From the NCBI GenBank assembly GCA_038248745.1, contig JBBRXC010000001.1, positions 264-64,263 of the forward strand: a stretch of 64,000 nucleotides of DNA. Reading direction: 5' to 3'. The stretch comes from Peptostreptococcales bacterium. Its GTDB lineage: Bacteria; Bacillota; Clostridia; Peptostreptococcales; Anaerovoracaceae. Both the position numbers and the translations under genes were made by a program. The notes under the pieces were generated by a model. That model was not told where the DNA came from. It did not search any database and saw nothing but the letters and a program-made list of their open reading frames with translations. Below are positions 32,804 to 44,858 of this stretch, in pieces; the first letter of the stretch is position 1, and every line of letters begins with the position of its first letter.

Positions 32804-33122
32804 ACCCAATATAAGCAGCCGACATTGGGTTTGTTAAAATATTAACCCCTGAAGTTGGTGGGTTTTTGGAAAATTAACCTGTGGATAAGTTTTTTAGTGC
32901 CAAGTAAATTATTCCTGTCATAAAATAAACTGAGCATGGGATGAATGTGTTTATGTCACATTCATCCCATGCTCAGTCTTTATACGTTTAATTGATTAAG
33001 TTTGTTTCCGTACCTTTGATTAGTTATCCACAGGTTCCCTGTGAATAACGGAAATTTGAAATGACTAATTGCAAGGGATAAAAAAAAAACGAAGCCCAAT
33101 GTCGGATGCTTATAATGGGCTT
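32802..33122. repeat. 320-bp composite palindromic (MITE-like) element bounded by inverted copies of the 31-nt REP-like unit
   Basis: Left end AAACCCAATATAAGCAGCCGACATTGGGTTT (27/31 match to the inverted unit). Right end is a perfect AAGCCCAATGTCGGATGCTTATAATGGGCTT (33092-33122). Internal mirrored CCTGTGGATAA (32878-32888) and TTATCCACAGG (33024-33034), with a central 21-bp hairpin. Confidence 0.8.
32929..32977. terminator. Strong bidirectional hairpin between convergent genes
   Basis: ACTGAGCATGGGATGAATGTG / CACATTCATCCCATGCTCAGT, a perfect 21-bp stem with a 7-nt loop, flanked by AAATAA and CTTTAT. Confidence 0.7.
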
Positions 33123-33622
33123 TGATCCAATTTGTTTGCAAGCTGAAGTAACCTTTCACAGGCAAGCTTTTGTGCATAACTGGAAATAGCTAGTTTTAGA
33201 ATCATCTCTGAGAGTTCCTCCCGGTCCATGTCTACATGGATTAAGTCTGAAACAGCTACGAATTCTCGGTCTATTTCTTTACAATATTTTTTATAAAAGT
33301 CCTCAATTTCTTGTCCCTCAAGTTGATCTTTTAGAAGTTTATCCGTATCTGATACAGATAAGACTCTCTTAAGAAGACAAATTGCCGTCAAATGAGCCAC
33401 ATGCTCTTTTTTGTATTTTTTTCGATGGGCCCTAGGCAATAAACCTTTTTTTATATAATTATTCACCATGGAGGCTGTCAGTGTTTCCTCACCTTCAAGC
33501 CCAATATGCTGTTTTTTCATAAAATTAAGCACTTGATCCATATATAATTCAATATCAGGGATCTGCTCCCATTTGGCAGGTCTGTCATCTTTTAAACTTC
33601 TCTTTAATTCAACAATATTCAT
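33110..33622 (-). CDS. DUF1836 domain-containing protein
   Basis: 170 aa. N-terminal ...WEQIPDIELYMDQVLNFM pattern. The last four codons and the stop lie inside the REP-like copy. Confidence 0.55.
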   Translation of the reverse strand: MNIVELKRSLKDDRPAKWEQIPDIELYMDQVLNFMKKQHIGLEGEETLTASMVNNYIKKGLLPRAHRKKYKKEHVAHLTAICLLKRVLSVSDTDKLLKDQLEGQEIEDFYKKYCKEIDREFVAVSDLIHVDMDREELSEMILKLAISSYAQKLACERLLQLANKLDQSPL

Positions 33623-33626
33623 TTTA

Positions 33627-34853
33627 TTATACCTCTTTTCTCCCAGGTCTTTTACAAGTATAGTGACTGGTATCCTTATAATTCAAGGTATCCATTGGAA
33701 GCTCCTTCTCACATAGTTTGTTCCTGACATATCTGCCCACATAGGCGTATATAACAGCAAAAATAGGGATTCCGATAATCATTCCAATAAATCCAAATAA
33801 CCCACCGCCAACCAGGATTGCAAAAATTACCCAGAAACTTGGTATGCCTGTAGAACCACCCAAAATCCTAGGCCCTATTACATTCCCATCCACAAGCTGC
33901 AATATTTGTATGAATATTACAAAATATACCGCTTGGATTGGGCTTTCCAGCAATATGATGATTGTTGAAGGGATTGCCCCTATAAACGGTCCAAAGAATG
34001 GGATGATATTTGTCGCACCGATAATCACACTTATTAATAAGGTATATGGCATACCCATAATTGTCATTGATATAAAACATATAATTCCAACAATGATAGA
34101 ATCTATTATTTTCCCATTGATAAAACCACTAAAAGTTCTGTTGATAAATTTTGATTCATGGATAATAAATTCTGCTCTTTCTTTTGTACAGCTTGCAAAA
34201 ATAATTTTTTTTGCCTGCGCAGCGAAAACTTCTTTTCCGTTCAGAAAATAAACACAAATAATAAGCCCTAATAAAAAGTTCTTGATGATCACTAAAAAAC
34301 TGATTAATCCAGTGGAGACACCTGCCACCACTTCTGACACGGTTGGCACCAGATTTTCCATAAACCAGTTGGTTAAATTATTTACAATGTTATTATTGAT
34401 GAAGTTTGCTGTTCTTTCAGATAGGTTAAATTTATCAACGACCCAAATCATTAATCCATCTGCATTACTTGGAAACGTGTTAATAATGCCCAGTATGCTT
34501 GTAGCCAGCTGAGGTAAGACCATGCTGATCAATCCGGTAATAATCGTTATCGACAATACTAAAGTGATTGCAGTAGATACTATTTTTGAAAAAGATATTA
34601 ATTTTTTCTTGTTATTGATCCGTGGTTCAAGAAACAGATTAATCTTCCGTAGGAAAAAATTATAGGAGGGAGTTAATAAATAGGCTATGACAAACCCATA
34701 AATAAATGGCGTTACAATGGCAACAAGAACACTCAGGTTTTCTGCAAGCCCTTGGGAACGATAAATCAGAAAAAACAAAACGATGGAGGCTGAAATAGCG
34801 ATAAAAATTGTCAACCCCCACTTAAAATAAGTATTTTCGATTTTAAGTTTCAT
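33627..34853 (-). CDS. AI-2E family transporter (PerM/YhhT-like)
   Basis: 408 aa with about eight TM segments and a C-terminal GxxGxxIGIP-type motif (GFIGMIIGIPIFAV). Confidence 0.8.
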   Translation of the reverse strand: MKLKIENTYFKWGLTIFIAISASIVLFFLIYRSQGLAENLSVLVAIVTPFIYGFVIAYLLTPSYNFFLRKINLFLEPRINNKKKLISFSKIVSTAITLVLSITIITGLISMVLPQLATSILGIINTFPSNADGLMIWVVDKFNLSERTANFINNNIVNNLTNWFMENLVPTVSEVVAGVSTGLISFLVIIKNFLLGLIICVYFLNGKEVFAAQAKKIIFASCTKERAEFIIHESKFINRTFSGFINGKIIDSIIVGIICFISMTIMGMPYTLLISVIIGATNIIPFFGPFIGAIPSTIIILLESPIQAVYFVIFIQILQLVDGNVIGPRILGGSTGIPSFWVIFAILVGGGLFGFIGMIIGIPIFAVIYAYVGRYVRNKLCEKELPMDTLNYKDTSHYTCKRPGRKEV

Positions 34854-34916: not shown

Positions 34917-35978
34917 TTATCTGATGTAGTCTTTAAATCCACTTGTATATTCAAGACTCCCGTCAGGCATTACAAAAACCGCTTCAGCACCATCAATTTT
35001 TTCAATTAGCGCTTTTGCTTCATTAAGGGGCATAATAAAGCAGGCCGTGGAAAGCCCGTCTGCTATGCCGGAATCTTTTGCAATAATTGAAACGGACCTG
35101 TAATGATCTGCTGGCATAAGCGTCTCCGGATCAATAATATGATGATATCTTTTCCCATTTACAAAATAATATCGCTGGTAATCGCCACTTGTAACGAGAG
35201 CACTTTCAACGAGTGCCACCGTATGAATGAGACTTGTGCCATCTTCCTTGTCAGGATTCTGAACGCCTACTTTCCAGGGGCCTTCATCATTGCCCTTCTC
35301 ACCAATGGATCTGACATTACCTCCGATACTTAGAAGCATCATTGTAATACCTTCCTTCTTTTCTCCGGCGAGGGCTGCCTGTTCTGTCGCGTAACCCTTT
35401 GCAACAGCCCCAACATCCAGGCTCATTTCTTTATCTTCAAGATAAACAGTACTCGCCTGTTCGTCTATTATCATCTTATTCATATCAGTATGTTTATTCG
35501 CTTCGAACAGACTTTCCATTGGAGGTACAGCCGCAGATTCAGGTAGAGCTATTCCCGCTTCCCTATATTCATGCCACACCTTCAGTACACTGCCAAATGC
35601 AACATTCACTTTTCCATCGGTCAATTCGTAGATTTCTTTTGAGAACAGAAGCAGATCTATCAGCTTTTTATCAACTTTCACAGGATTTATTCCCGCATTT
35701 TCATTGATGGTTTTGATATTATTTATACCCTCATAATCATTATAAATATCAAATAATTCATGATATATTTTAAGTTCATCGTAAATAAAATTTGACTGTT
35801 TCTTAAACGCAGCCTCATCAGTTGAATATGCTATGATTTGTGAGGCAGTATCAAATAAATTTGTGAATCCTACGTCATACCTTGTTAATTTTGTTCCATT
35901 TGCACACCCGACAAGCATTCCTGCACTTAATGCGATTATAAGGATTATGCTTATTTTAAGTTTCATTTTATTGGTCAC
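34917..35978 (-). CDS. apbE: FAD:protein FMN transferase (ApbE) lipoprotein
   Basis: 353 aa. GTG start 8 nt after GGAG. Lipobox MLVGCANG. ApbE motifs DVGAVAKGYA, LLSIGGN, TSGDYQRY and HHIIDP. Confidence 0.88.
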   Translation of the reverse strand: MTNKMKLKISIILIIALSAGMLVGCANGTKLTRYDVGFTNLFDTASQIIAYSTDEAAFKKQSNFIYDELKIYHELFDIYNDYEGINNIKTINENAGINPVKVDKKLIDLLLFSKEIYELTDGKVNVAFGSVLKVWHEYREAGIALPESAAVPPMESLFEANKHTDMNKMIIDEQASTVYLEDKEMSLDVGAVAKGYATEQAALAGEKKEGITMMLLSIGGNVRSIGEKGNDEGPWKVGVQNPDKEDGTSLIHTVALVESALVTSGDYQRYYFVNGKRYHHIIDPETLMPADHYRSVSIIAKDSGIADGLSTACFIMPLNEAKALIEKIDGAEAVFVMPDGSLEYTSGFKDYIR

Positions 35979-36021
35979 TTTTGATCTCCTCGAAAAATAA
36001 TTATAGTAAACTGTATTTTGG

Positions 36022-36060
36022 GAAAAAAATTAGGGGCAGAAAATCCCACCCCTAAAAAAA
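36022..36060 (-). terminator. Intrinsic terminator between the FMN-binding lipoprotein gene and apbE
   Basis: Minus strand: TTAGGGGTGGGATTTTCTGCCCCTAA hairpin followed by TTTTTTTCC. Confidence 0.6.
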
Positions 36061-36070
36061 ACGTTGTTTT

Positions 36071-36574
36071 TTATTTTGCTTCTGCCTGTGCAAGCGCTTC
36101 GTTTACAAGGTCAAAGAAGTGACCATAAGAAATGGTTGCTCCTGAAATTGCATCCGTTTTGCCTTCAGCATCAAACATAATGGAAGTAGTATCCTGTGTT
36201 GAAACGATATAATCTTGAATAGCCTTTGCCTGTGCATCCCAAGGTGAAGTAGAGCCTGCAACACTCATGTCATAATTTCCAGCTGCCACTTCTGCCAGTT
36301 TGTCACCCTTTGTAGCATCTGAATTTGTTGCATTTAAAACAACAGCTGATATTTTACCATCCGTAATTGTTACGGTAGCATTATCTTTCCATCCAGTTTC
36401 AGCACTAAAATCAGCCTGTTCAGCGGTATAAGTACCGTCTGTATAAAGAGTAGCCTCTGGTGTTGGTTCTGGTGTTGGTTCTGGTGTTGGCTCATCTTTT
36501 GCGCATGCTGTAAATACAGTCAAGGCCATAATAAGAACCAGCATAAAAATACCTGTTTTTTTAAAATTTTTCAT
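36071..36574 (-). CDS. FMN-binding domain lipoprotein (PplA-like flavinylation substrate)
   Basis: 167 aa. Lipobox VFTACAK, PTPEPTPEPTPE linker, single FMN_bind-like domain carrying the ApbE target motif DAISGATIS. Confidence 0.8.
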   Translation of the reverse strand: MKNFKKTGIFMLVLIMALTVFTACAKDEPTPEPTPEPTPEATLYTDGTYTAEQADFSAETGWKDNATVTITDGKISAVVLNATNSDATKGDKLAEVAAGNYDMSVAGSTSPWDAQAKAIQDYIVSTQDTTSIMFDAEGKTDAISGATISYGHFFDLVNEALAQAEAK

Positions 36575-36615
36575 TGAAAATTTCCTCCTTAAATTGAATT
36601 GTTTTGATTGAGTTA

Positions 36616-37131
36616 TTATTTGTTATTATAAAACCCGACTCTGTTAAAAGCAGGTTGAATAAACTTGAGTAGTACCGATGTGACAATTCCTGCTATCACT
36701 CCTGTCAGAAGTAGAAGTGGGAAAAAGTACAACAGATACAAGTTTGTATATACAACAGAGACAGCGACCAGCTGACCAATGTTATGGGATATAGCACCGA
36801 AAATACTTAAAATCAAGTAAGATACCCTGTCCTTAAATATATACATGAAAAGAATCATCACTGTTACCGATAAAAGCCCTCCAGATAAACTTAAAACACT
36901 TGCGATCCATCCTCTTGTTGAAAAGACGAAAATGGCTTTTAATACTGCCACTGCATATGCCTGTTTCCCTCCTATAAAGAAAAGAACATACATGACGGCG
37001 ATATTTGAAAGTCCAAATTTAACACCAGGTATTGCAACGGGCAACGGAGGCAATGAATTTTCTACGACTGACAATATGATTGCAACTGCAAAGAATAGTG
37101 ACGTCAACACCAGCTTTTGTGTTTTTCCCAT
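36616..37131 (-). CDS. Gx transporter / heptaprenyl diphosphate synthase component I-family membrane protein (EetB-like)
   Basis: 171 aa with five TM segments. The family pattern LPPLPVAIPGVKFGLSNI is typical of Hpre_diP_synt_I-type proteins. Confidence 0.65.
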   Translation of the reverse strand: MGKTQKLVLTSLFFAVAIILSVVENSLPPLPVAIPGVKFGLSNIAVMYVLFFIGGKQAYAVAVLKAIFVFSTRGWIASVLSLSGGLLSVTVMILFMYIFKDRVSYLILSIFGAISHNIGQLVAVSVVYTNLYLLYFFPLLLLTGVIAGIVTSVLLKFIQPAFNRVGFYNNK

Positions 37132-37517
37132 TATATTACCACGTCATTCTGATTATTATGATACCCATTTACTGGAACAATTTTCAATATTAAACCATTT
37201 GGCAGACAAGCTGCACTTTGACCCACAATATGAAGTCTTCCCGAATGAACACATATTTGATCGGGGCAATCAGATTTTTCAAAGGCAATAAACCCATCCT
37301 TATACAAATGAAAAACTACATTTTCCTTACCTGGAATTGAAAAAGTGCTGTCTTCTCCTGTCGACAAAACAACAGTTTTCATTAATTCTGATTCCAAATA
37401 TATTTCTGCCTTCGCTTCTTCCCCTTGCGCCAGATAATTATAGGTCACATATACCGTTGCTGAAATAACCAGCAATATTATAATGACGATTAAATCTGTT
37501 TTTTTAAAAAATTTCAT
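37131..37517 (-). CDS. NusG domain II-containing membrane-anchored protein (DUF1312, EetA-like)
   Basis: 128 aa. N-terminal TM followed by a beta-rich domain with CPDQICVHSG...ACLPNGL. Confidence 0.6.
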   Translation of the reverse strand: MKFFKKTDLIVIIILLVISATVYVTYNYLAQGEEAKAEIYLESELMKTVVLSTGEDSTFSIPGKENVVFHLYKDGFIAFEKSDCPDQICVHSGRLHIVGQSAACLPNGLILKIVPVNGYHNNQNDVVI

Positions 37518-38512
37518 TTTGTTATCCCATTATATGACTTTTCTAAAATGTCAATCAGTTTGCCTTTTTTCTCTATGTTGGTTTCAAGCCCATCTATAAC
37601 AAGGCTTGCTTTATTATAATAACCTTTTGAAATTCCTTTTGTAAAGCCTATTCCATCAAATTTAATAACCAGATTGATTATTTCTTCTATATGAATTCCC
37701 CCAGTTTTTATATTTGTGCTAAAATCTTCATTTTGTTTAATTGCATGAATTAAAGGAAGTGTTATGACACCTTCTTCATAATCCTTACCAACAGGTTTTT
37801 TTGCCTCTGCTTCAGACGCTTCAAAGTCTATGCAATCATCCGTCAATTGAAAGATCATGCCTATATATCTACCCAGTTTAGCATACTGGTTTTGATATTT
37901 TTCTTGTTCTCCGGAAAAAATTGCTCCTGCCAAGAACGCTCCTTCAAACAAAGCCGCAGTTTTACCTCTTATAATCTTTAAATATCTGAATGTTGATATA
38001 TTCAGATTTCCATTGTTAGCGTACTGCTCCAGTTCTCCAAGGCAAACTCTTGAAACAAAGTTCGGCAGAAAAAATTCAGTATAGTTTTCCTTTTCTTTTA
38101 AAAGGGATAAATTTCTAAGGGCTAAACTAAGTAAATAATCTCCACAAATCACTGCCTTTTTCTTACCGTATTTCTTTTGAAGTGTTTCATTTCCTCTTCT
38201 TAAATCAGAATCATCAATAATATCATCATGAACCAAAGTTGCCAAATGCAGTATTTCTATTGATACGGCCATGTAAACAGCATTTTCATGAATTTCGTTT
38301 TCTCTGTTCAGTGCACAAACTAATAGCCCTTTAGCTCTAACAAACTTACCCTGACTCTTTGATAAATGCTTCGTATAATCTCTAACCATATGAGGCGCTT
38401 GAACCAGTAGTTTTTCAACGGAAGCTTTTGTCAAATCTAAAGCTTCATCAAATGTATAGTATTTGATGTCAGAATGAATACTGCCAGAATTGTTAATTTC
38501 CAGTTTAGTCAT
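37514..38512 (-). CDS. Polyprenyl diphosphate synthase (DmkB-like)
   Basis: First Asp-rich motif LVHDDIIDDSDLRRG and second Asp-rich motif QLTDDCIDF. ATG at 38512; the track start at 38536 is TTG. Confidence 0.85.
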   Translation of the reverse strand: MTKLEINNSGSIHSDIKYYTFDEALDLTKASVEKLLVQAPHMVRDYTKHLSKSQGKFVRAKGLLVCALNRENEIHENAVYMAVSIEILHLATLVHDDIIDDSDLRRGNETLQKKYGKKKAVICGDYLLSLALRNLSLLKEKENYTEFFLPNFVSRVCLGELEQYANNGNLNISTFRYLKIIRGKTAALFEGAFLAGAIFSGEQEKYQNQYAKLGRYIGMIFQLTDDCIDFEASEAEAKKPVGKDYEEGVITLPLIHAIKQNEDFSTNIKTGGIHIEEIINLVIKFDGIGFTKGISKGYYNKASLVIDGLETNIEKKGKLIDILEKSYNGITK

Positions 38513-40475
38513 TATATAAGTACCACTTTCTTCCAAATCTTGTATGTGCCCATTTATTTTTCAATACCGGCATGACATAATAATCCAAGCCAAATACGCT
38601 GCCTCCAGCTATTAGTAAAGCGATTGCTGCAAATACCATCCAGAAGGTGGTAATATATAGCCCCGTAGTCAGCATGAACATAGCTTGTAGAACAATGGAA
38701 AACCCGGAAGCAAGGAAGGTAAAAAGCCCACCAATTAAAGCCAAACCGATAAGAATTTCTGCAATGACGATTGTTGACTGCATGAATACCTGCATGGCTT
38801 CACTTGATAAAATAAATTTATCTACAAACCAGTTCATAAAAGGCATATCTATTTTCAATGCATAATCTGACATTGTTGCCATATCTAAACTCTTTCCGCT
38901 TACAAATATAATACGAATCAGTCCAAATATATCAAAATTTAAAATCTGTACTCCTGTTGTAATGACCGATTCGACACCACCTGCACCGGTTGCTGCAGTT
39001 ACAGCATCTCCAGCTTTTTGTACGGTATCAGCGGCTACATCCCCAGTAATACTATTATACCAGTTGGTCGCTCCACCAAAGAAGCCTTCAAGTTTTGGCT
39101 GAGTCATCCAACCTTCAATGATTTTTTTAATACCTTCGAATACCCACACTGAACCAAGCCACAAACGCAATGGAACCAGTAAAAAACTTGGTGTTCGATT
39201 GGAAAAATGTCCTCCCACGAAGCTTCTGTTGTTTCGAATTGTGAAGAACTCATGTTTGGAATAGTTAAATAGCTTGTTCCAACCCAGTACCTGGAGAAAA
39301 TAAATGCAGTTGATAAAATGCTTTGACAACATGGCCAAAAATGATGGCAGGTTGAACATGAATTTTGGAAGTCCCACTCTAGCTACACCATAACGTCCTC
39401 CCACACAAACCATAACCCCATGAAATGATGGTTTATAGGTTTCCAAATGCTGACCTTTGATGGCAGCTTCAATGTTGTGAGACACTGTATGCGCACTTTG
39501 TTCACAGTTTTCAACCATCTGAGGTACTGGCATTTCCTCTCCCTTAGGGATAAAGAACATATTGTCTCCAGCAACGTATACATCTTCTCTATCTACAGAT
39601 CTTAAATATTCATCGGTCTTGATTCTACCACGACCAACTGAAGTAATCTGTTTCGCTGCTTCATATGCAATCGCTGCGCTTTCTATTCCTGCCGCCCATA
39701 CTACCGTTCCTGCATCATATTTATTGGTTTCTTCACCAACTTTAAGCGCAATAAAATCTTGACCAATTTCTACCACGCCTGTGCCAAACATGGTTTTAAC
39801 ACCCATTTTATTCAAACGTCTTTCTACCTTGTTCGATAATTTTTCAGGTAAAATAGGTACAGCTCTTGGTAAAATATCAACATTACATAAGGATACCAGT
39901 TCTTTCGGGATCCCATGTTTTTTACATAATATAGGCACGTATTCTGCCAGTTCGCCAATCATTTCAACGCCAGTAAATCCAGCACCTACAACGTAAAAAG
40001 TCAGCATCAATTTCTTCTTCTCTAGATCAGTAATGGAAACTGCTTTTCTGAAAGAATTCTCGATTTGTTCTTTTAATCTAATTGCGTCATCAAACGACCA
40101 AAGATTAAATGCAAACTCTTCTGCTCCTTTTACCCCAAAATAAGTCGGTTTAGAGCCGGAAGCAATAACAAGATAATCGTACTCATATTGGCTGCAGTTA
40201 CCTAAAACCTTTTTGCCATCAAAATCAATTGATTCAACTGTATCTAACACCACATCAACATTTCGCCCAGAAAACACTTTCTCAAGACTAATTTTGATGC
40301 TGTCCTCATCCACCCTGTTTGCGGATACTTCATGCAACTCAGTCAGCATTGTATGATAAGGATTTCTATCAATTATTGATATGGCAACTTCTTCTTTAAT
40401 TTTAAATTTCTTGGCCAATTTTTTAGCTGTCAAGATCCCAGCGTATCCTGCGCCAATAATAACAATTTTCTTCAT
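38505..40475 (-). CDS. ndh: Type II NADH dehydrogenase (NDH-2) fused to a C-terminal polytopic membrane domain
   Basis: 656 aa. KIVIIGAGYAGILTA and VVGAGFTGVEMIGEL dinucleotide motifs within the first 400 aa or so. The last 250 aa or so contain several hydrophobic helices. Confidence 0.85.
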   Translation of the reverse strand: MKKIVIIGAGYAGILTAKKLAKKFKIKEEVAISIIDRNPYHTMLTELHEVSANRVDEDSIKISLEKVFSGRNVDVVLDTVESIDFDGKKVLGNCSQYEYDYLVIASGSKPTYFGVKGAEEFAFNLWSFDDAIRLKEQIENSFRKAVSITDLEKKKLMLTFYVVGAGFTGVEMIGELAEYVPILCKKHGIPKELVSLCNVDILPRAVPILPEKLSNKVERRLNKMGVKTMFGTGVVEIGQDFIALKVGEETNKYDAGTVVWAAGIESAAIAYEAAKQITSVGRGRIKTDEYLRSVDREDVYVAGDNMFFIPKGEEMPVPQMVENCEQSAHTVSHNIEAAIKGQHLETYKPSFHGVMVCVGGRYGVARVGLPKFMFNLPSFLAMLSKHFINCIYFLQVLGWNKLFNYSKHEFFTIRNNRSFVGGHFSNRTPSFLLVPLRLWLGSVWVFEGIKKIIEGWMTQPKLEGFFGGATNWYNSITGDVAADTVQKAGDAVTAATGAGGVESVITTGVQILNFDIFGLIRIIFVSGKSLDMATMSDYALKIDMPFMNWFVDKFILSSEAMQVFMQSTIVIAEILIGLALIGGLFTFLASGFSIVLQAMFMLTTGLYITTFWMVFAAIALLIAGGSVFGLDYYVMPVLKNKWAHTRFGRKWYLYND

Positions 40476-40733
40476 ACTTTGCTCCTTGTTCTATTTTATT
40501 ATAATATTAACTATCATACTCTTCACTGTATATTTTTACACGATATTTATAGTATAGTATATTGGTAGGTAAATATCAATCGATTTCTTCGTGAATTGTT
40601 AAGTTTAAATCAAGCAAAAACCCTATTTACAATATATTATTTGTTATTATTTTGGTTATTTTTCCCTTTGATGGGTAAATACATAACATGAATTAAATAA
40701 TGTACTTATTAAAGAAATATGGAGGAAATTGAA

Positions 40734-41114
40734 ATGACAGATGTAAAATTTTTTATATGTAAGCATTGCGGCAATATCGTGGAAATGGTTCACGACTCTG
40801 GTGTTCCTATTATTTGTTGTGGAGATGAAATGAATGAAATTGTTGCAAACACTGTTGATGCAAGCAAAGAAAAGCACGTTCCGGTCGCTACTGTTGAAGG
40901 AAATACAATAACAGTTAAAGTTGGCGCTGTTGCTCATCCTATGGAACCTGAACATCATATCGCATGGGTTTATCTTCAAACAGAAAAGGGTGCGCAGAAA
41001 AAAAATCTAAAAATTGGAGATTCTCCAGAAGCACACTTCTTGCTTGAAGATGACAAAGCAGTCGCAGTTTATGATTACTGCAATCTTCACGGCCTTTGGA
41101 AATCTCAATTATAA
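40734..41114 (+). CDS. dfx: Desulfoferrodoxin (2Fe superoxide reductase)
   Basis: ATG at 40734 follows GGAGG (the track ATG at 40719 lies inside the RBS). N-terminal CKHCGN...CCG desulforedoxin site. C-terminal HPMEPEHHIAW ... CNLHGLW centre II ligands. Confidence 0.9.
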   Translation: MTDVKFFICKHCGNIVEMVHDSGVPIICCGDEMNEIVANTVDASKEKHVPVATVEGNTITVKVGAVAHPMEPEHHIAWVYLQTEKGAQKKNLKIGDSPEAHFLLEDDKAVAVYDYCNLHGLWKSQL

Positions 41115-41196
41115 TCAAATCGTTCATCCTAATTCTAATCAAACCAGTTAACTTTTTCTTTGATTAGATTTATTATTTAACACATGTCTATAAAAA

Positions 41197-41230
41197 AACT
41201 GTGCGTCTATTAAGATTCACAGTTATTTTT
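41197..41230 (+). terminator. Weak intrinsic terminator after dfx
   Basis: AACTGTG / CACAGTT 7-bp stem with a 14-nt loop, followed by ATTTTT. Confidence 0.4.
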
Positions 41231-41295
41231 AATGACACAATATTTTAATTACACTTTATATTCATTCAGATTACTATTGAATTAAAGGAATTGTT

Positions 41296-42024
41296 TTAGT
41301 GTACCGTTCCAATATAACTGAATCCACTTACCTCTTTATGATTGATATCAGTAGTGAATTCAAAATCCAATCCCCTGTTCAACCCAGCTATATATATATG
41401 GCAAAGTGCAATTCCTATATCTATTTGGTTCATTTTTCCATACAGCATACTTTGTAGAAGATTAATCGCCTTTTGATATACATGAATTGAACCATCCTGT
41501 TCTTCAAAAAACCAATTTTGGCTGTTTGTTGCTGATGGCGCCAACCTTGCCGCCTCCAAGCGTTCATCAACACCACTATAAACCTCTTCAGCCGGCTTCC
41601 GTTTAAATCCCGACATTTCTCTGTAAGGACCATTCAAGGTTTCTCCAAACCCTATCGCAATGACAAAATCCTTTTTAACATCCATCTTATCCTTTGGTTT
41701 TGCCATGCCCAACCAGCACGCTCCCAGCCCTTTACTTGACAGGAATAAATCAAGTTGCTGAAACATAAACCCTACATTATTAAGGTATCCTTCTTTCTCT
41801 TCGCTGTAAATCAACAGATAGTGAGGTGCTTTGACAGGCAACAGATTTTTTGTATCTGTAACTATTTTGTAATCAACCCTGATTTCTTTATGAAGGGGAA
41901 CAATGTTTTTAATAAATTCTTCGACTTCTATCAATGCTTCTACAGAAATTCCCTCCATCTTATATTGTCGGACAGATTTTCTTTTATAAATATATTCAAC
42001 TAGTTCTTTCAGTGTATTATCCAT
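41296..42024 (-). CDS. Nitroreductase family protein
   Basis: ATG at 42024 (MDNTLKELVEYIYKRKSVRQY) follows AAAGGTGA. RKSVRQY and the C-terminal LAPSATNSQ motif are typical of the nitroreductase fold. Confidence 0.75.
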   Translation of the reverse strand: MDNTLKELVEYIYKRKSVRQYKMEGISVEALIEVEEFIKNIVPLHKEIRVDYKIVTDTKNLLPVKAPHYLLIYSEEKEGYLNNVGFMFQQLDLFLSSKGLGACWLGMAKPKDKMDVKKDFVIAIGFGETLNGPYREMSGFKRKPAEEVYSGVDERLEAARLAPSATNSQNWFFEEQDGSIHVYQKAINLLQSMLYGKMNQIDIGIALCHIYIAGLNRGLDFEFTTDINHKEVSGFSYIGTVH

Positions 42025-42192
42025 ATTAATCACCTTTCCAGCTATTATCACTTTTTCTTCTATTTTACCTATCAATATATAATATACCATCTCTCTAAAG
42101 ATTTCAAACAATTTACTTGCCATATTATACGTTGGCCATTTATAATTATATATAATATATTTTAACAGAAACCGTAAGAGGAGGATATTGAA

Positions 42193-43638
42193 ATGTCAAT
42201 GAAAACAGGTTCAGAATACATTGAAAGTTTAAGGAAATTGAATTTAAATGTTTATATTTTTGGGGAAAAGATCAAATCTCCTGTAGATCATCCAATGATT
42301 ATTCCCTCTATGAATGCGGTTGCCCTAACCTATGATTTAGCTTTAGACCCTATGCATGAGGATTTGATGACGGTAAACTCTTCTGTCACCGGAGAGAAAA
42401 TCAATCTTTTTAATCAGGTTTTCGTCAGTACAGACAATCTGGTTCAAAAGGTTAAAAGGCAAAGAATGTTAGGGCAAAAAACAGGATGCTGTTTTCAGCG
42501 CTGTGTTGGGCAGGATGCCTTCAACGCAGTATACAGCACTGCTTATGAGATTGACCAAAAATACGGCACCCACTATTTTGATCGTTTTATACATTTTCTT
42601 AAATATGTTCAGGCCGAAGATTTGGTCACAGATGGCGCGATGACAGATCCAAAGGGAGACCGTGGTCTTTCTCCAAGCAACCAGGTTGATCCAGATCTTT
42701 ATCTTCGAGTGGTTGAAACTCTCCCGGATGGCATTATTGTAAATGGTTGTAAAGCACATCAGACAGGTATTGTAAACTCCCACGAAGTACTATGCATGCC
42801 GACCATTGCAATGGCACCTGAAGACAAGGATTATGCCCTTTCCTTCTCCATTCCAACTGATACAATAGGAATTACTATTATTTACGGAAGACAGTCCTGT
42901 GATACAAGAAAAATGGAAGGAACGGAAATAGATGTTGGGAATAGCGAGTTCGGCGGACATGAAGCGCTTGTTATCTTTGATCATGTGTTTGTGCCAAATG
43001 AAAGAATATTTATGAATGGGGAAACTGAGTTTGTAGGAATGCTGGTGGAAAGATTTAGTGGACATCACAGACCTAGTTATGCTTGCAAATCTGGTGTGGG
43101 AGATGTTCTTATAGGGGCCGCCGCTTTAGCTGCAGATTATAATGGTGTTCCAAAAGCCTCCCATATAAAAGATAAATTAATAGAAATGACTCATTTAAAC
43201 GAAACCCTTTATGCTGCAGCACTTGCCTGTTCCTATGAGGGCTTCGCAACACCTTCAGGTGCCTACCTGATTGACCTGCTACTTGCAAATGTCTGCAAAC
43301 AGAATGTTACAAGATTCCCTTATGAAATTGGCAGACTTGCTGAAGATATCGCAGGTGGATTAATGGTGACGCAACCATCGGAAAAAGATTTCAGAAGCCC
43401 CGAAATAGGTCACTACATAGAAAAATACCTAAGAGGCGTCGATTCAGTCCCAACTGAAAACAGACTTCGAATCTTAAGACTGATAGAAAATCTTACTTTA
43501 GGGGCAGGTGCTGTGGGTTACAGGACAGAATCCATGCATGGTGCCGGCTCCCCTCAGGCCCAAAGAGTCATGATCAACAGGTTTGCGAATTTGGAATATA
43601 AAAAGGAACTTGCCAAGAAGATTGCTAAAATAAAGTAA
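42193..43638 (+). CDS. 4-hydroxybutyryl-CoA dehydratase/vinylacetyl-CoA isomerase (AbfD)-family protein
   Basis: 481 aa. 4-HPA-hydroxylase-like fold with candidate Fe-S ligands GCCFQRC and HHRPSYAC, spaced as in AbfD. Confidence 0.65.
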   Translation: MSMKTGSEYIESLRKLNLNVYIFGEKIKSPVDHPMIIPSMNAVALTYDLALDPMHEDLMTVNSSVTGEKINLFNQVFVSTDNLVQKVKRQRMLGQKTGCCFQRCVGQDAFNAVYSTAYEIDQKYGTHYFDRFIHFLKYVQAEDLVTDGAMTDPKGDRGLSPSNQVDPDLYLRVVETLPDGIIVNGCKAHQTGIVNSHEVLCMPTIAMAPEDKDYALSFSIPTDTIGITIIYGRQSCDTRKMEGTEIDVGNSEFGGHEALVIFDHVFVPNERIFMNGETEFVGMLVERFSGHHRPSYACKSGVGDVLIGAAALAADYNGVPKASHIKDKLIEMTHLNETLYAAALACSYEGFATPSGAYLIDLLLANVCKQNVTRFPYEIGRLAEDIAGGLMVTQPSEKDFRSPEIGHYIEKYLRGVDSVPTENRLRILRLIENLTLGAGAVGYRTESMHGAGSPQAQRVMINRFANLEYKKELAKKIAKIK

Positions 43639-43667
43639 AAACAGCAAATTGTTGTTTTAGAAAAATT

Positions 43668-43711
43668 AAAAAGCCAACGGTCGAAATGATTTCGTGCCGT
43701 TGGCTTTTTTA
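43668..43711. terminator. Intrinsic terminator between convergent genes
   Basis: AAAAGCCAACGG / CCGTTGGCTTTT stem followed by TTTTTT. Confidence 0.75.
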
Positions 43712-43737
43712 ATAGGCAACAAAAAATAATTACCAAG

Positions 43738-44151
43738 TTAACTGATTGCCTCTTTTAATACTTGTATCATATTATCAATATGCTGTCCTACTGTAAGGTC
43801 CATCACACTTACAACCTGAATATGACATTTATTTAATGGAAGAAGTATTTTCAGCGCATGGCTTGAACCAATTGCTAATGCCATTTTTGGGGTTAGCTCT
43901 CCCATCATAGCATTAGCGTTGAGGATACCAACTGGACCAAGTATTACATCAACATGCTTCATATTATGTATAATCGCATTTTCACCAGTAGCGCCCTCAT
44001 CAGCACCACCTCTTAACATTTGTCCCGTCGCCACTGAATTGGTGCCAAGCGCATAAATCTTACAATCATTTAATATATTTTCAGCTTTAATTTTTTCAAC
44101 AATGGCCTTTCCAATACCACCACCCTGACCATCAATTACTGCAATTATCAT
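43738..44151 (-). CDS. DUF3842 family protein
   Basis: ATG at 44151 (MIIAVIDGQGGGIGKAIVEKIK) follows GGTGGTGA. The track start at 44226 is unlikely. Confidence 0.6.
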   Translation of the reverse strand: MIIAVIDGQGGGIGKAIVEKIKAENILNDCKIYALGTNSVATGQMLRGGADEGATGENAIIHNMKHVDVILGPVGILNANAMMGELTPKMALAIGSSHALKILLPLNKCHIQVVSVMDLTVGQHIDNMIQVLKEAIS

Positions 44152-44230
44152 TTCACCACCGTAAACCTTTCCAGTTTTATTTATAAAATAATGAACCTGT
44201 TCAACAGTCTCACATCCATACGCCATTTAT

Positions 44231-44282
44231 TGTAAACCATAATAAATTATTAGTTGACATACATTAATTTGTATCATATAAT
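44231..44282 (+). promoter_or_regulatory. bioY promoter with an overlapping BirA-operator-like inverted repeat
   Basis: TTGACA (44254-44259), exact 17-nt spacer, TATAAT (44277-44282). TGTAAAC-N15-GTTGACA inverted repeat (44231-44259) overlaps the -35. Confidence 0.6.
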
Positions 44283-44309
44283 CATCCTGTTGCATGAAAG
44301 GAAGTTCTT

Positions 44310-44858
44310 ATGAAAAATCAAAAAATAATTACTACAACTGTCATTGGTCTTTTTACAGCGATCACCTGTATACTAGGCCCATTATCAATTATTATTCCCA
44401 TATCTCCGGTCCCAATCACCTTTACCAATCTGGCCATCTATTTTACGGTGATCATTCTGGGCTGGAAGAAAGGAACAACAAGTTATTTGGTTTACCTGCT
44501 AATCGGCTTTGTTGGTGTGCCTGTTTTTTCCGGATTTACAGCAGGCCCTGGGAAACTACTTGGTCCGACAGGTGGCTATCTGATAGGTTTTATCTTTCTT
44601 GCGCTGATCGCCGGCTATTTCGTTGATCGATTTCCTGGCAAAACTCCCATGTATATTATTGGCATGGTTCTCGGGACCCTAGTTACTTATGCATTAGGAA
44701 CCGGATGGCTAGCTTTCCAAGCAAATCTAACTTTTCAGGCAGCTTTGTTTGCTGGCGTAATACCTTATATTTTAGGAGATGCCCTTAAAATCGCAGTTGC
44801 CGCTATGATTGGCCCAGCAATTAAAAAACAGGTAGTAAAAGCAGGGTATTTAAAATAA
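44310..44858 (+). CDS. bioY: Biotin transporter S-component
   Basis: 182 aa with six TMs. PITFTNLAIYF, GPTGGYLIGF and IPYILGDALK motifs. Confidence 0.85.
   Translation: MKNQKIITTTVIGLFTAITCILGPLSIIIPISPVPITFTNLAIYFTVIILGWKKGTTSYLVYLLIGFVGVPVFSGFTAGPGKLLGPTGGYLIGFIFLALIAGYFVDRFPGKTPMYIIGMVLGTLVTYALGTGWLAFQANLTFQAALFAGVIPYILGDALKIAVAAMIGPAIKKQVVKAGYLK

Follow-up and report, generated by a model that had tools for sequence, protein, structure and literature searches.

A probable flavin-based extracellular electron-transfer locus with a replaced surface lipoprotein in an Anaerovoracaceae-like clostridial genome

The 64,000-nucleotide stretch considered here (the window: positions 264 to 64,263 of contig JBBRXC010000001.1, assembly GCA_038248745.1, from a Peptostreptococcales bacterium) lies on contig C1 of a 1.71-Mb metagenome-assembled genome (MAG) comprising 197 contigs and 84.6% complete. 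A row of six minus-strand genes at 34917-40475 probably encodes a flavin-based extracellular (extracytosolic) electron-transfer (EET) chain of the Listeria/Enterococcus/Lactiplantibacillus type, here in an Anaerovoracaceae-like clostridial MAG. The case is built from gene families, motifs, topology signals, synteny, a genome-wide gene inventory and the replacement of one gene cassette. An earlier note on this DNA had called the locus Listeria-type by gene family and position, and that assignment gains support from the published bioinformatic definition of such loci, from the membership of its EetB-like protein in PF07456, from an ApbE closest to FmnB and from gene sizes close to those of Enterococcus. 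The features of the locus, all on the minus strand, are as follows (aa, amino acids).

40551-40579, minus strand: candidate sigma-70-type promoter 5' of ndh2, TTGATA-17-TATACT, from a consensus scan (10/12 matches)
38505-40475, minus strand: ndh2, long-form type II NADH dehydrogenase (NDH-2), 656 aa; Pyr_redox_2, 134 bits
37514-38512, minus strand: DmkB-like polyprenyl diphosphate synthase, 332 aa from ATG; polyprenyl_synt, 191 bits
37131-37517, minus strand: eetA-like gene, membrane-anchored NusG_II protein, 128 aa; NusG_II, 77 bits
36616-37131, minus strand: eetB-like gene, membrane protein of the substrate-binding (S) type of energy-coupling factor (ECF) transporters, 171 aa; Hpre_diP_synt_I (PF07456), 121 bits
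36071-36603, minus strand: laterally replaced cassette, ribosome-binding site plus lipoprotein gene, delimited by DNA homology breakpoints
36071-36574, minus strand: single-domain FMN_bind lipoprotein ("f"), 167 aa, PplA analogue; FMN_bind, 29.7 bits
36128-36154, minus strand: flavinylation motif DAISGATIS, residues 141-149, predicted acceptor Thr147, by direct reading
36030-36055, minus strand: intrinsic terminator in the interval between the lipoprotein gene and apbE; 11-bp stem with 5 GC pairs, 4-nt loop, T7 tail
34917-35978, minus strand: ApbE/FmnB-type flavin adenine dinucleotide (FAD):protein flavin mononucleotide (FMN) transferase lipoprotein, 353 aa; ApbE, 231 bits

All six open reading frames lie where the earlier note had placed them, and profile searches put all six proteins above the curated Pfam cut-offs for the families it had named. 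Its description of the first five genes as coupled by overlaps stands for four of them: ndh2 and the prenyl synthase gene share 8 nt when translation of the latter is taken to begin with the ATG at 38512 (its longest frame begins with TTG at 38536), the prenyl synthase gene and eetA by 4 nt, and eetA and eetB by 1 nt. The fifth gene, that of the lipoprotein, does not overlap eetB: the two are 41 nt apart, and the spacer holds an AGGAGG ribosome-binding site for the lipoprotein gene. The apbE gene starts with GTG, 7 nt past GAGGAG. The terminator, the two lipoboxes, the PTPE linker and the flavinylation motif reported earlier are all present.

Meheust et al. 2021 defined EET loci by an NDH-2 (K03885-type) with at least one transmembrane helix inside a flavinylation-associated (ApbE/FMN_bind) gene cluster (PMC8238504). 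In the window protein, Pyr_redox_2 matches residues 3-323 and residues 2-398 match solved NDH-2s of some 400 aa each (Bacillus subtilis YjlD, 1e-62; 4NWZ, 3e-60; 5NA1, 5e-59), giving a catalytic part (residues 1-400) followed by a membrane extension of about 250 aa, with two to three C-terminal transmembrane helices predicted between residues 569 and 630; ApbE and FMN_bind genes lie within 4 kb on the same strand. The solved structures and predicted helices thus bear out the NDH-2 with a membrane extension proposed from the first reading, and the locus falls within the published definition. A profile search with the C-terminal part returned sub-threshold DoxD/DoxX matches only (DoxD, 17 bits). 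The polyprenyl synthase carries both aspartate-rich motifs (DDIID and DDCID), with the small residues A and T at positions -5 and -4 before the first. Its nearest NCBIfam models are HepT and the hexaprenyl synthase large subunit, both below cut-off, and its nearest PDB entries are heptaprenyl and hexaprenyl synthase large subunits. By these motifs and neighbours it is DmkB-like and predicted to make a medium to long chain, which places a DmkB inside the cluster as in Listeria-type loci.

The ApbE protein has a lipobox (LVGC), and its best PDB match is Listeria FmnB (7ESA, 6.9e-38), with identical TSG, YHHI(I/L)DP and DGLSTA segments, which mark it as a predicted extracytosolic FMN transferase of the ApbE/FmnB type. 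The presumed target in the cluster is the lipoprotein f, which exceeds the FMN_bind cut-off (29.7 bits against 22). Its lipobox cysteine (Cys24, in FTAC) is invariant in 37 homologues, as are, or nearly so, D141, A142, G145, T147 and I148 of the flavinylation motif. Against the PplA model NF041941 it scores 27.8 bits, the cut-off being 325, with one domain aligned to model positions 180-281. Judging from sequence, it is no PplA equivalog but a one-domain analogue whose DAISGATIS site is canonical. PDB entry 2KZX matches residues 45-165 (E 1.4e-22), including TDAISGATI, and is thus the structural representative of this single-domain subfamily; the depositors of 2KZX and of 3O6U (CPE2226) assigned no function, and the entries come without lipid anchor or genomic context.

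The EetA-like protein has one predicted N-terminal transmembrane helix. Listeria EetA is presumably a member of PF07009. The EetB-like protein exceeds its cut-off fourfold (121 bits against 30), has about five to six hydrophobic segments and is found in a single copy in the MAG. Rivera-Lugo et al. 2023 define eetB as PF07456 and report that eetA and eetB co-localise in 3,328 genomes (PMC9973259), a pattern that the adjacent window genes fit. According to the same work Listeria EetB is an ECF-S subunit that exports FAD for FmnB together with the ECF-T subunit FmnA and shared ATPases (PMC9973259), and by analogy the window EetB would be the substrate-binding subunit of an FAD exporter. No dedicated FmnA-type gene of the ECF-T/CbiQ family lies in the cluster. 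Elsewhere in the MAG, CbiQ-family genes comprise EcfT on contig C18, where a housekeeping ecfA-ecfA'-ecfT module lies downstream of rplQ, CbiQ on C4 and a weak orphan on C165. This orphan ECF-like module (C165:241-2853) encodes a 337-aa protein (CbiQ, 23.5 bits, no NCBIfam match), followed by a gene for two fused ATPases that is cut short by the end of the contig, and may be an FmnA-like partner of EetB. The MAG also holds ribD, lumazine synthase and ribF, so flavin import by RibU is not required; no convincing RibU candidate was found in the MAG, the gene on C7 being FolT-like, that on C27 matching no assigned type and that on C14 being weak. The earlier statement that no ECF flavin transporter lies in or next to the cluster is thus correct as to an FmnA-type ECF-T, but EetB itself would be the S subunit of an exporter. 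A locus altogether without a flavin transporter is ruled out by that subunit, the ECF core on C18 and the rib genes.

From these parts we infer a chain in which the long NDH-2 would oxidise cytosolic NADH and reduce a membrane naphthoquinone, most likely demethylmenaquinone. The in-cluster polyprenyl synthase would make the quinone tail, and a MenA-like prenyltransferase encoded on contig C116 would join it to a head group of the 1,4-dihydroxy-2-naphthoate (DHNA) type, probably scavenged. The quinol would in turn reduce FMN covalently bound to Thr147 of the surface lipoprotein, which would hand the electrons to acceptors outside the cell such as Fe(III), free flavins, or quinones and humics; no dedicated terminal reductase was found in the MAG. 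The ApbE lipoprotein would attach the FMN, taken from FAD, and the FAD would be exported by EetB, probably aided by EetA, using ECF-T and ATPase subunits encoded elsewhere.

Full-length homologues of the long NDH-2 with 60-90% identity are abundant, occurring in at least 551 species representatives, the nearest being in Firmicutes bacterium UBA5559 (77%) and in Anaerovoracaceae MAGs (69-76%), followed by Sinanaerobacter, Anaerovorax, Ruminiclostridium, Hungatella, Lacrimispora, Sedimentibacter and Clostridium aminobutyricum. A tblastn census covered 66 loci from species-representative genomes with enough downstream sequence. The consensus order is Ndh2, prenyl synthase, UbiA, EetA, EetB, a lipoprotein of another type (R), ApbE (N-P-U-A-B-R-E), and the order N-P-(U)-A-B-lipoprotein-E is kept in 64-65 of the 66 species, a recurrence that argues the arrangement is not due to chance. 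ApbE is present at 65 of the 66 loci and the R lipoprotein at 64; UbiA lies inside the cluster in 53. The f-type lipoprotein is found at three, and at only one of the 66 does f occur without R. Among cultured carriers, Clostridium aminobutyricum DSM 2634 has f alone. Carriers of the consensus cluster include Ruminiclostridium cellulolyticum H10, a Cellulosilyticum sp., Anaerovorax odorimutans and Sinanaerobacter chloroacetimidivorans, which share with the window orthologous ndh2 (60-77% identity), prenyl synthase, eetA, eetB and apbE genes in the same order and orientation. The window departs from this consensus in two respects, its UbiA gene being on C116 rather than in the cluster, and its lipoprotein being the 167-aa canonical FMN_bind form with S-G-A-T rather than the two-repeat R form with S-x-V-T.

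R, which fills the PplA position in the consensus clusters, is a lipoprotein of 331-374 aa built from two repeats with a mutual identity of 48% (for example L021:13937-14965, L012:13953-15017 and L014:15023-16105, aligned as A2 with 60+ other loci). It has no match in Pfam or NCBIfam. Each repeat carries a conserved D-x-[DE]-L-x-[AS]-S-V-T where a flavinylation site would be, and profile-profile comparison of the R repeat with f gives a probability of 96.9-99% (96.9%, E about 1e-10, with the signal peptides removed), the S-G-A-T of f aligning to S-[S/E]-V-T of R with the Thr conserved. This homology, together with 2KZX as the best PDB match of the R profile, rules out R as an unrelated family; a Foldseek search with a confident AlphaFold model of R (predicted local distance difference test score 91.9) gave no significant PDB neighbour (best E 0.036).

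No R is found in the window's MAG. The vertical relatives of the locus (Ndh2 70-77%, EetB 71-75% identity) carry R, with no f found anywhere in their genomes, whereas the window f shares 80% identity with its counterpart in a distant lineage (L018/L103) whose other cluster proteins are far less similar (Ndh2 53-54%, EetA 29%, EetB 35%, ApbE 31%). At the DNA level, homology to the R-bearing locus L021 stops at 36603, and homology to the f-bearing L103 (76%) spans exactly 36603-36071. The swapped arrangement recurs in a sister species, GCA_016650115.1 (87-96% identity). These breakpoints, the identity to a distant lineage and the presence of R in the vertical relatives show that f, in a small clade, came in laterally as a cassette and took the place of R, which accounts for the single FMN-binding domain that the earlier note had rightly picked out as a difference from Listeria. 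The f-bearing loci L018:8001-14500, L020:8001-14435 and L103:8001-14596 have a second architecture, in which f is followed by apbE in the opposite orientation and then, in the orientation of f, by ndh2, eetA, eetB and the prenyl synthase gene. A PF02441 (UbiX/Pad1-like flavoprotein) gene comes next and UbiA is missing from the surroundings, which may mean a different quinone synthesis or modification.

The terminal lipoprotein may be an exchangeable part of EET clusters in Clostridia, f having replaced R in this clade base for base, with R possibly flavinylated at S-x-V-T and DHNA cross-fed between organisms; this wider picture is offered as a tentative one. Were it true, the type of lipoprotein may set the specificity for acceptors, and quinone-auxotrophic anaerobes would depend on cross-fed DHNA.

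On the quinone side of the chain, the first reading had found no UbiA-type DmkA in or next to the cluster and had asked what the lipid carrier might be. None is present in the window around the cluster, but a genome search finds a MenA-like gene on C116, the sole UbiA-family gene in the MAG, which scores 323 bits against the DHNA polyprenyltransferase model NF004752 (cut-off 289) and shares 41% identity (E 1.5e-67) with the UbiA encoded inside the cluster of R. cellulolyticum. A truly missing DmkA is ruled out by this score and this homology. Endogenous DHNA synthesis, in turn, is ruled out by missing men genes: tblastn with E. coli MenFDHBCE found no MenD, MenF, MenH or MenC in the MAG and, for the rest, only a 32%-identity crotonase-level MenB match and generic ligase matches, and in profile searches of the MAG and of 10 relatives, some of them cultured and some with complete genomes, no score came near the cut-offs of the curated MenD, MenB and MqnA models, while the positive controls fired. 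A prenyl synthase is nevertheless encoded in 62 of the 66 related clusters and a MenA-like gene in 53, despite the absence of men and futalosine genes from the genomes checked. Lactiplantibacillus plantarum is a quinone auxotroph that runs EET on exogenous DHNA (PMC9888254, PMC10746273), and by analogy the carrier here is most likely demethylmenaquinone built on a scavenged DHNA-type head group, scavenged because neither a men nor a futalosine pathway is present. The question of the lipid carrier thus narrows to the source of the naphthoquinone head group. The search for other quinol sinks (cytochrome bd, an FrdA-type flavoprotein or fumarate reductase, multihaem cytochromes) found none in the MAG, so that the lipoprotein is the sole evident outlet for the quinol pool.

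The MAG also encodes Rnf, in an rnfC-D-G-E cluster on another contig (C8:22092-25698), with eetB and apbE on C1 beside ndh2. It has just two FMN_bind genes, those of the window lipoprotein and rnfG, and the RnfG motif (DTISGATIS) is of the same type as that of the lipoprotein; RnfD has DAITSATPL. In the whole MAG, ApbE, EetA and EetB were each found once, at the window locus, and would therefore also have to flavinylate RnfG and RnfD, which may be why apbE sits behind its own terminator. It could be argued from this that the locus is mainly a flavin-trafficking service for Rnf, with the NDH-2, the prenyl synthase and the lipoprotein as neighbours in an unrelated or minor role. The sole ApbE and EetB copies, the flavinylation motifs on C8, the terminator setting apbE apart and the co-localisation of eetB with Rnf genes in 572 Clostridia genomes (PMC9973259) all fit such a service. 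We consider it improbable, however, as the ndh2, prenyl synthase and lipoprotein genes are fixed neighbours of eetAB-apbE in 64-65 of the 66 species, the first four genes overlap, and the lipoprotein has a canonical flavinylation site that needs an electron donor. Nor do rnf genes lie with eetB and apbE here, the contigs being separate, as they do in the Rnf-associated eetB/apbE module of Rivera-Lugo et al. 2023. A dual role, shared with Rnf, is likely; an exclusive one is not. The co-occurrence of Rnf with an EET-type cluster in this MAG contradicts the published generalisation that cad-apbE loci are confined to genomes without rnf (PMC7074142).

A different destination for the electrons was also weighed. 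The lipoprotein might feed a specific extracytosolic reductase for a soluble organic acceptor rather than minerals or shuttles, as with Listeria PplA/FmnB and fumarate reductase or the urocanate-type flavin reductases. A homologue of f in Dehalobacterium formicoaceticum (57% identical, L019:8001-10262) stands beside a Ni_hydr_CYTB-type cytochrome b and a multihaem cytochrome c, with no Ndh2 cluster, and such a lipoprotein can thus couple to other redox partners; the neighbourhood hints that an f-type flavoprotein module may plug into a cytochrome-based chain. In the MAG, however, there is no further FMN_bind protein and no FrdA-type flavoprotein, though the missing 15% of the genome could hide one, and a dedicated soluble-acceptor reductase seems unlikely.

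The genes around the locus raise another possibility, namely that the chain is a defence against redox or oxygen stress, using NADH to reduce O2, quinones and reactive species at the cell surface rather than serving energy-linked disposal. The flanks (window 40719-44858 and 33110-34853) are syntenic with Firmicutes bacterium UBA5559 (L015/L016), the nearest relative, and not with remoter carriers of the cluster. They encode a desulfoferrodoxin, a nitroreductase-fold protein, an HpaB/AbfD-like enzyme, DUF3842 and BioY on one side, and an AI-2E-family transporter and DUF1836 on the other. The desulfoferrodoxin and nitroreductase-fold genes are conserved divergent neighbours both here and in that relative, and exogenous quinones cause in L. 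plantarum an oxidative stress that an electron acceptor relieves. This neighbourhood is, however, kept only in the nearest relatives and is absent from Ruminiclostridium, Cellulosilyticum and L017, where the cluster itself persists, which makes a primary role in defence the least probable of the alternatives, and very unlikely.

An EET chain thus remains the preferred reading, with several points to be set against it. In Listeria the dedicated ECF-T subunit FmnA is essential for FAD export, and none is linked to the window cluster. The lipoprotein falls far below the PplA equivalog cut-off, with one FMN-binding domain where PplA has two. EET in L. plantarum does not require dmkA or dmkB, and DHNA is able to work there as a soluble shuttle; a membrane pool of demethylmenaquinone is therefore not certain to be the carrier. 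Finally, at 84.6% completeness and 197 contigs the absences from the MAG (men genes, reductases, a second ApbE) are provisional, and the 10 relatives back up only that of the men genes.

In comparison with characterised systems, the locus shares with that of Listeria (PMC8906456, PMC9973259) the long NDH-2 with a membrane extension, the polyprenyl synthase, EetB (PF07456) with a putative EetA encoded beside it, an ApbE-type lipoprotein closest to FmnB and a surface lipoprotein with FMN_bind and an SGAT flavinylation site. It differs in that dmkA is unlinked, on another contig, that the cluster has no dedicated fmnA, and that the lipoprotein has one FMN domain, whereas PplA has two, flavinylated at T143 and T265. 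The hosts differ as well: that of the window makes flavins but not DHNA and also has Rnf, whereas Listeria is a flavin auxotroph that makes DHNA. The Enterococcus faecalis locus is close in gene sizes, with an NADH dehydrogenase of 648 aa, a "HepS component I" of 185 aa, a HepT of 328 aa and an ApbE of 355 aa. With the FLEET locus of L. plantarum (PMC9888254, PMC10746273) the shared elements are Ndh2, a PplA-type lipoprotein, EetB with a putative EetA, and DmkA/DmkB, along with the lack of DHNA biosynthesis, the use of exogenous quinone head groups and a fermentative metabolism in which EET is an extra NAD+-regenerating sink. That locus has FmnA, two ATPase genes and a two-domain PplA, whereas the window cluster is without FmnA and ATPases and its lipoprotein is a single domain of a different (2KZX-like) subfamily.

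As to transcription, matches to the sigma-70 consensus are equally frequent in shuffled sequence, and the ndh2 promoter is a candidate only. A regulatory operator was sought upstream of ndh2, where just an 8-nt inverted repeat around the -10 box was seen, which is not interpretable. A perfect TATAAT hexamer at window positions 36000-36005 (minus strand), between the terminator and the apbE ribosome-binding site, has no good -35 partner; it could start transcription of apbE separately, but the leader would be almost nil.

The system is thus of a known kind, already catalogued bioinformatically in Clostridia, and the anomalies flagged at first reading are explained by the unlinked dmkA, the transport role of EetB and the cassette swap. 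With it another strict anaerobe, an Anaerovoracaceae-like amino-acid fermenter, joins the organisms for which disposal of NADH electrons outside the cell is predicted. The gene inventory predicts that this organism depends on cross-fed naphthoquinone head groups, and the 10 clostridial relatives checked, several of them cultured, have the same gap. A single ApbE/EetAB set appears to supply Rnf as well as the EET lipoprotein, which would link energy conservation and electron disposal through shared maturation. The precise cassette swap, in turn, shows the surface flavoprotein evolving independently of the membrane core, and it draws attention to R, the dominant and as yet unannotated lipoprotein family of these clusters.

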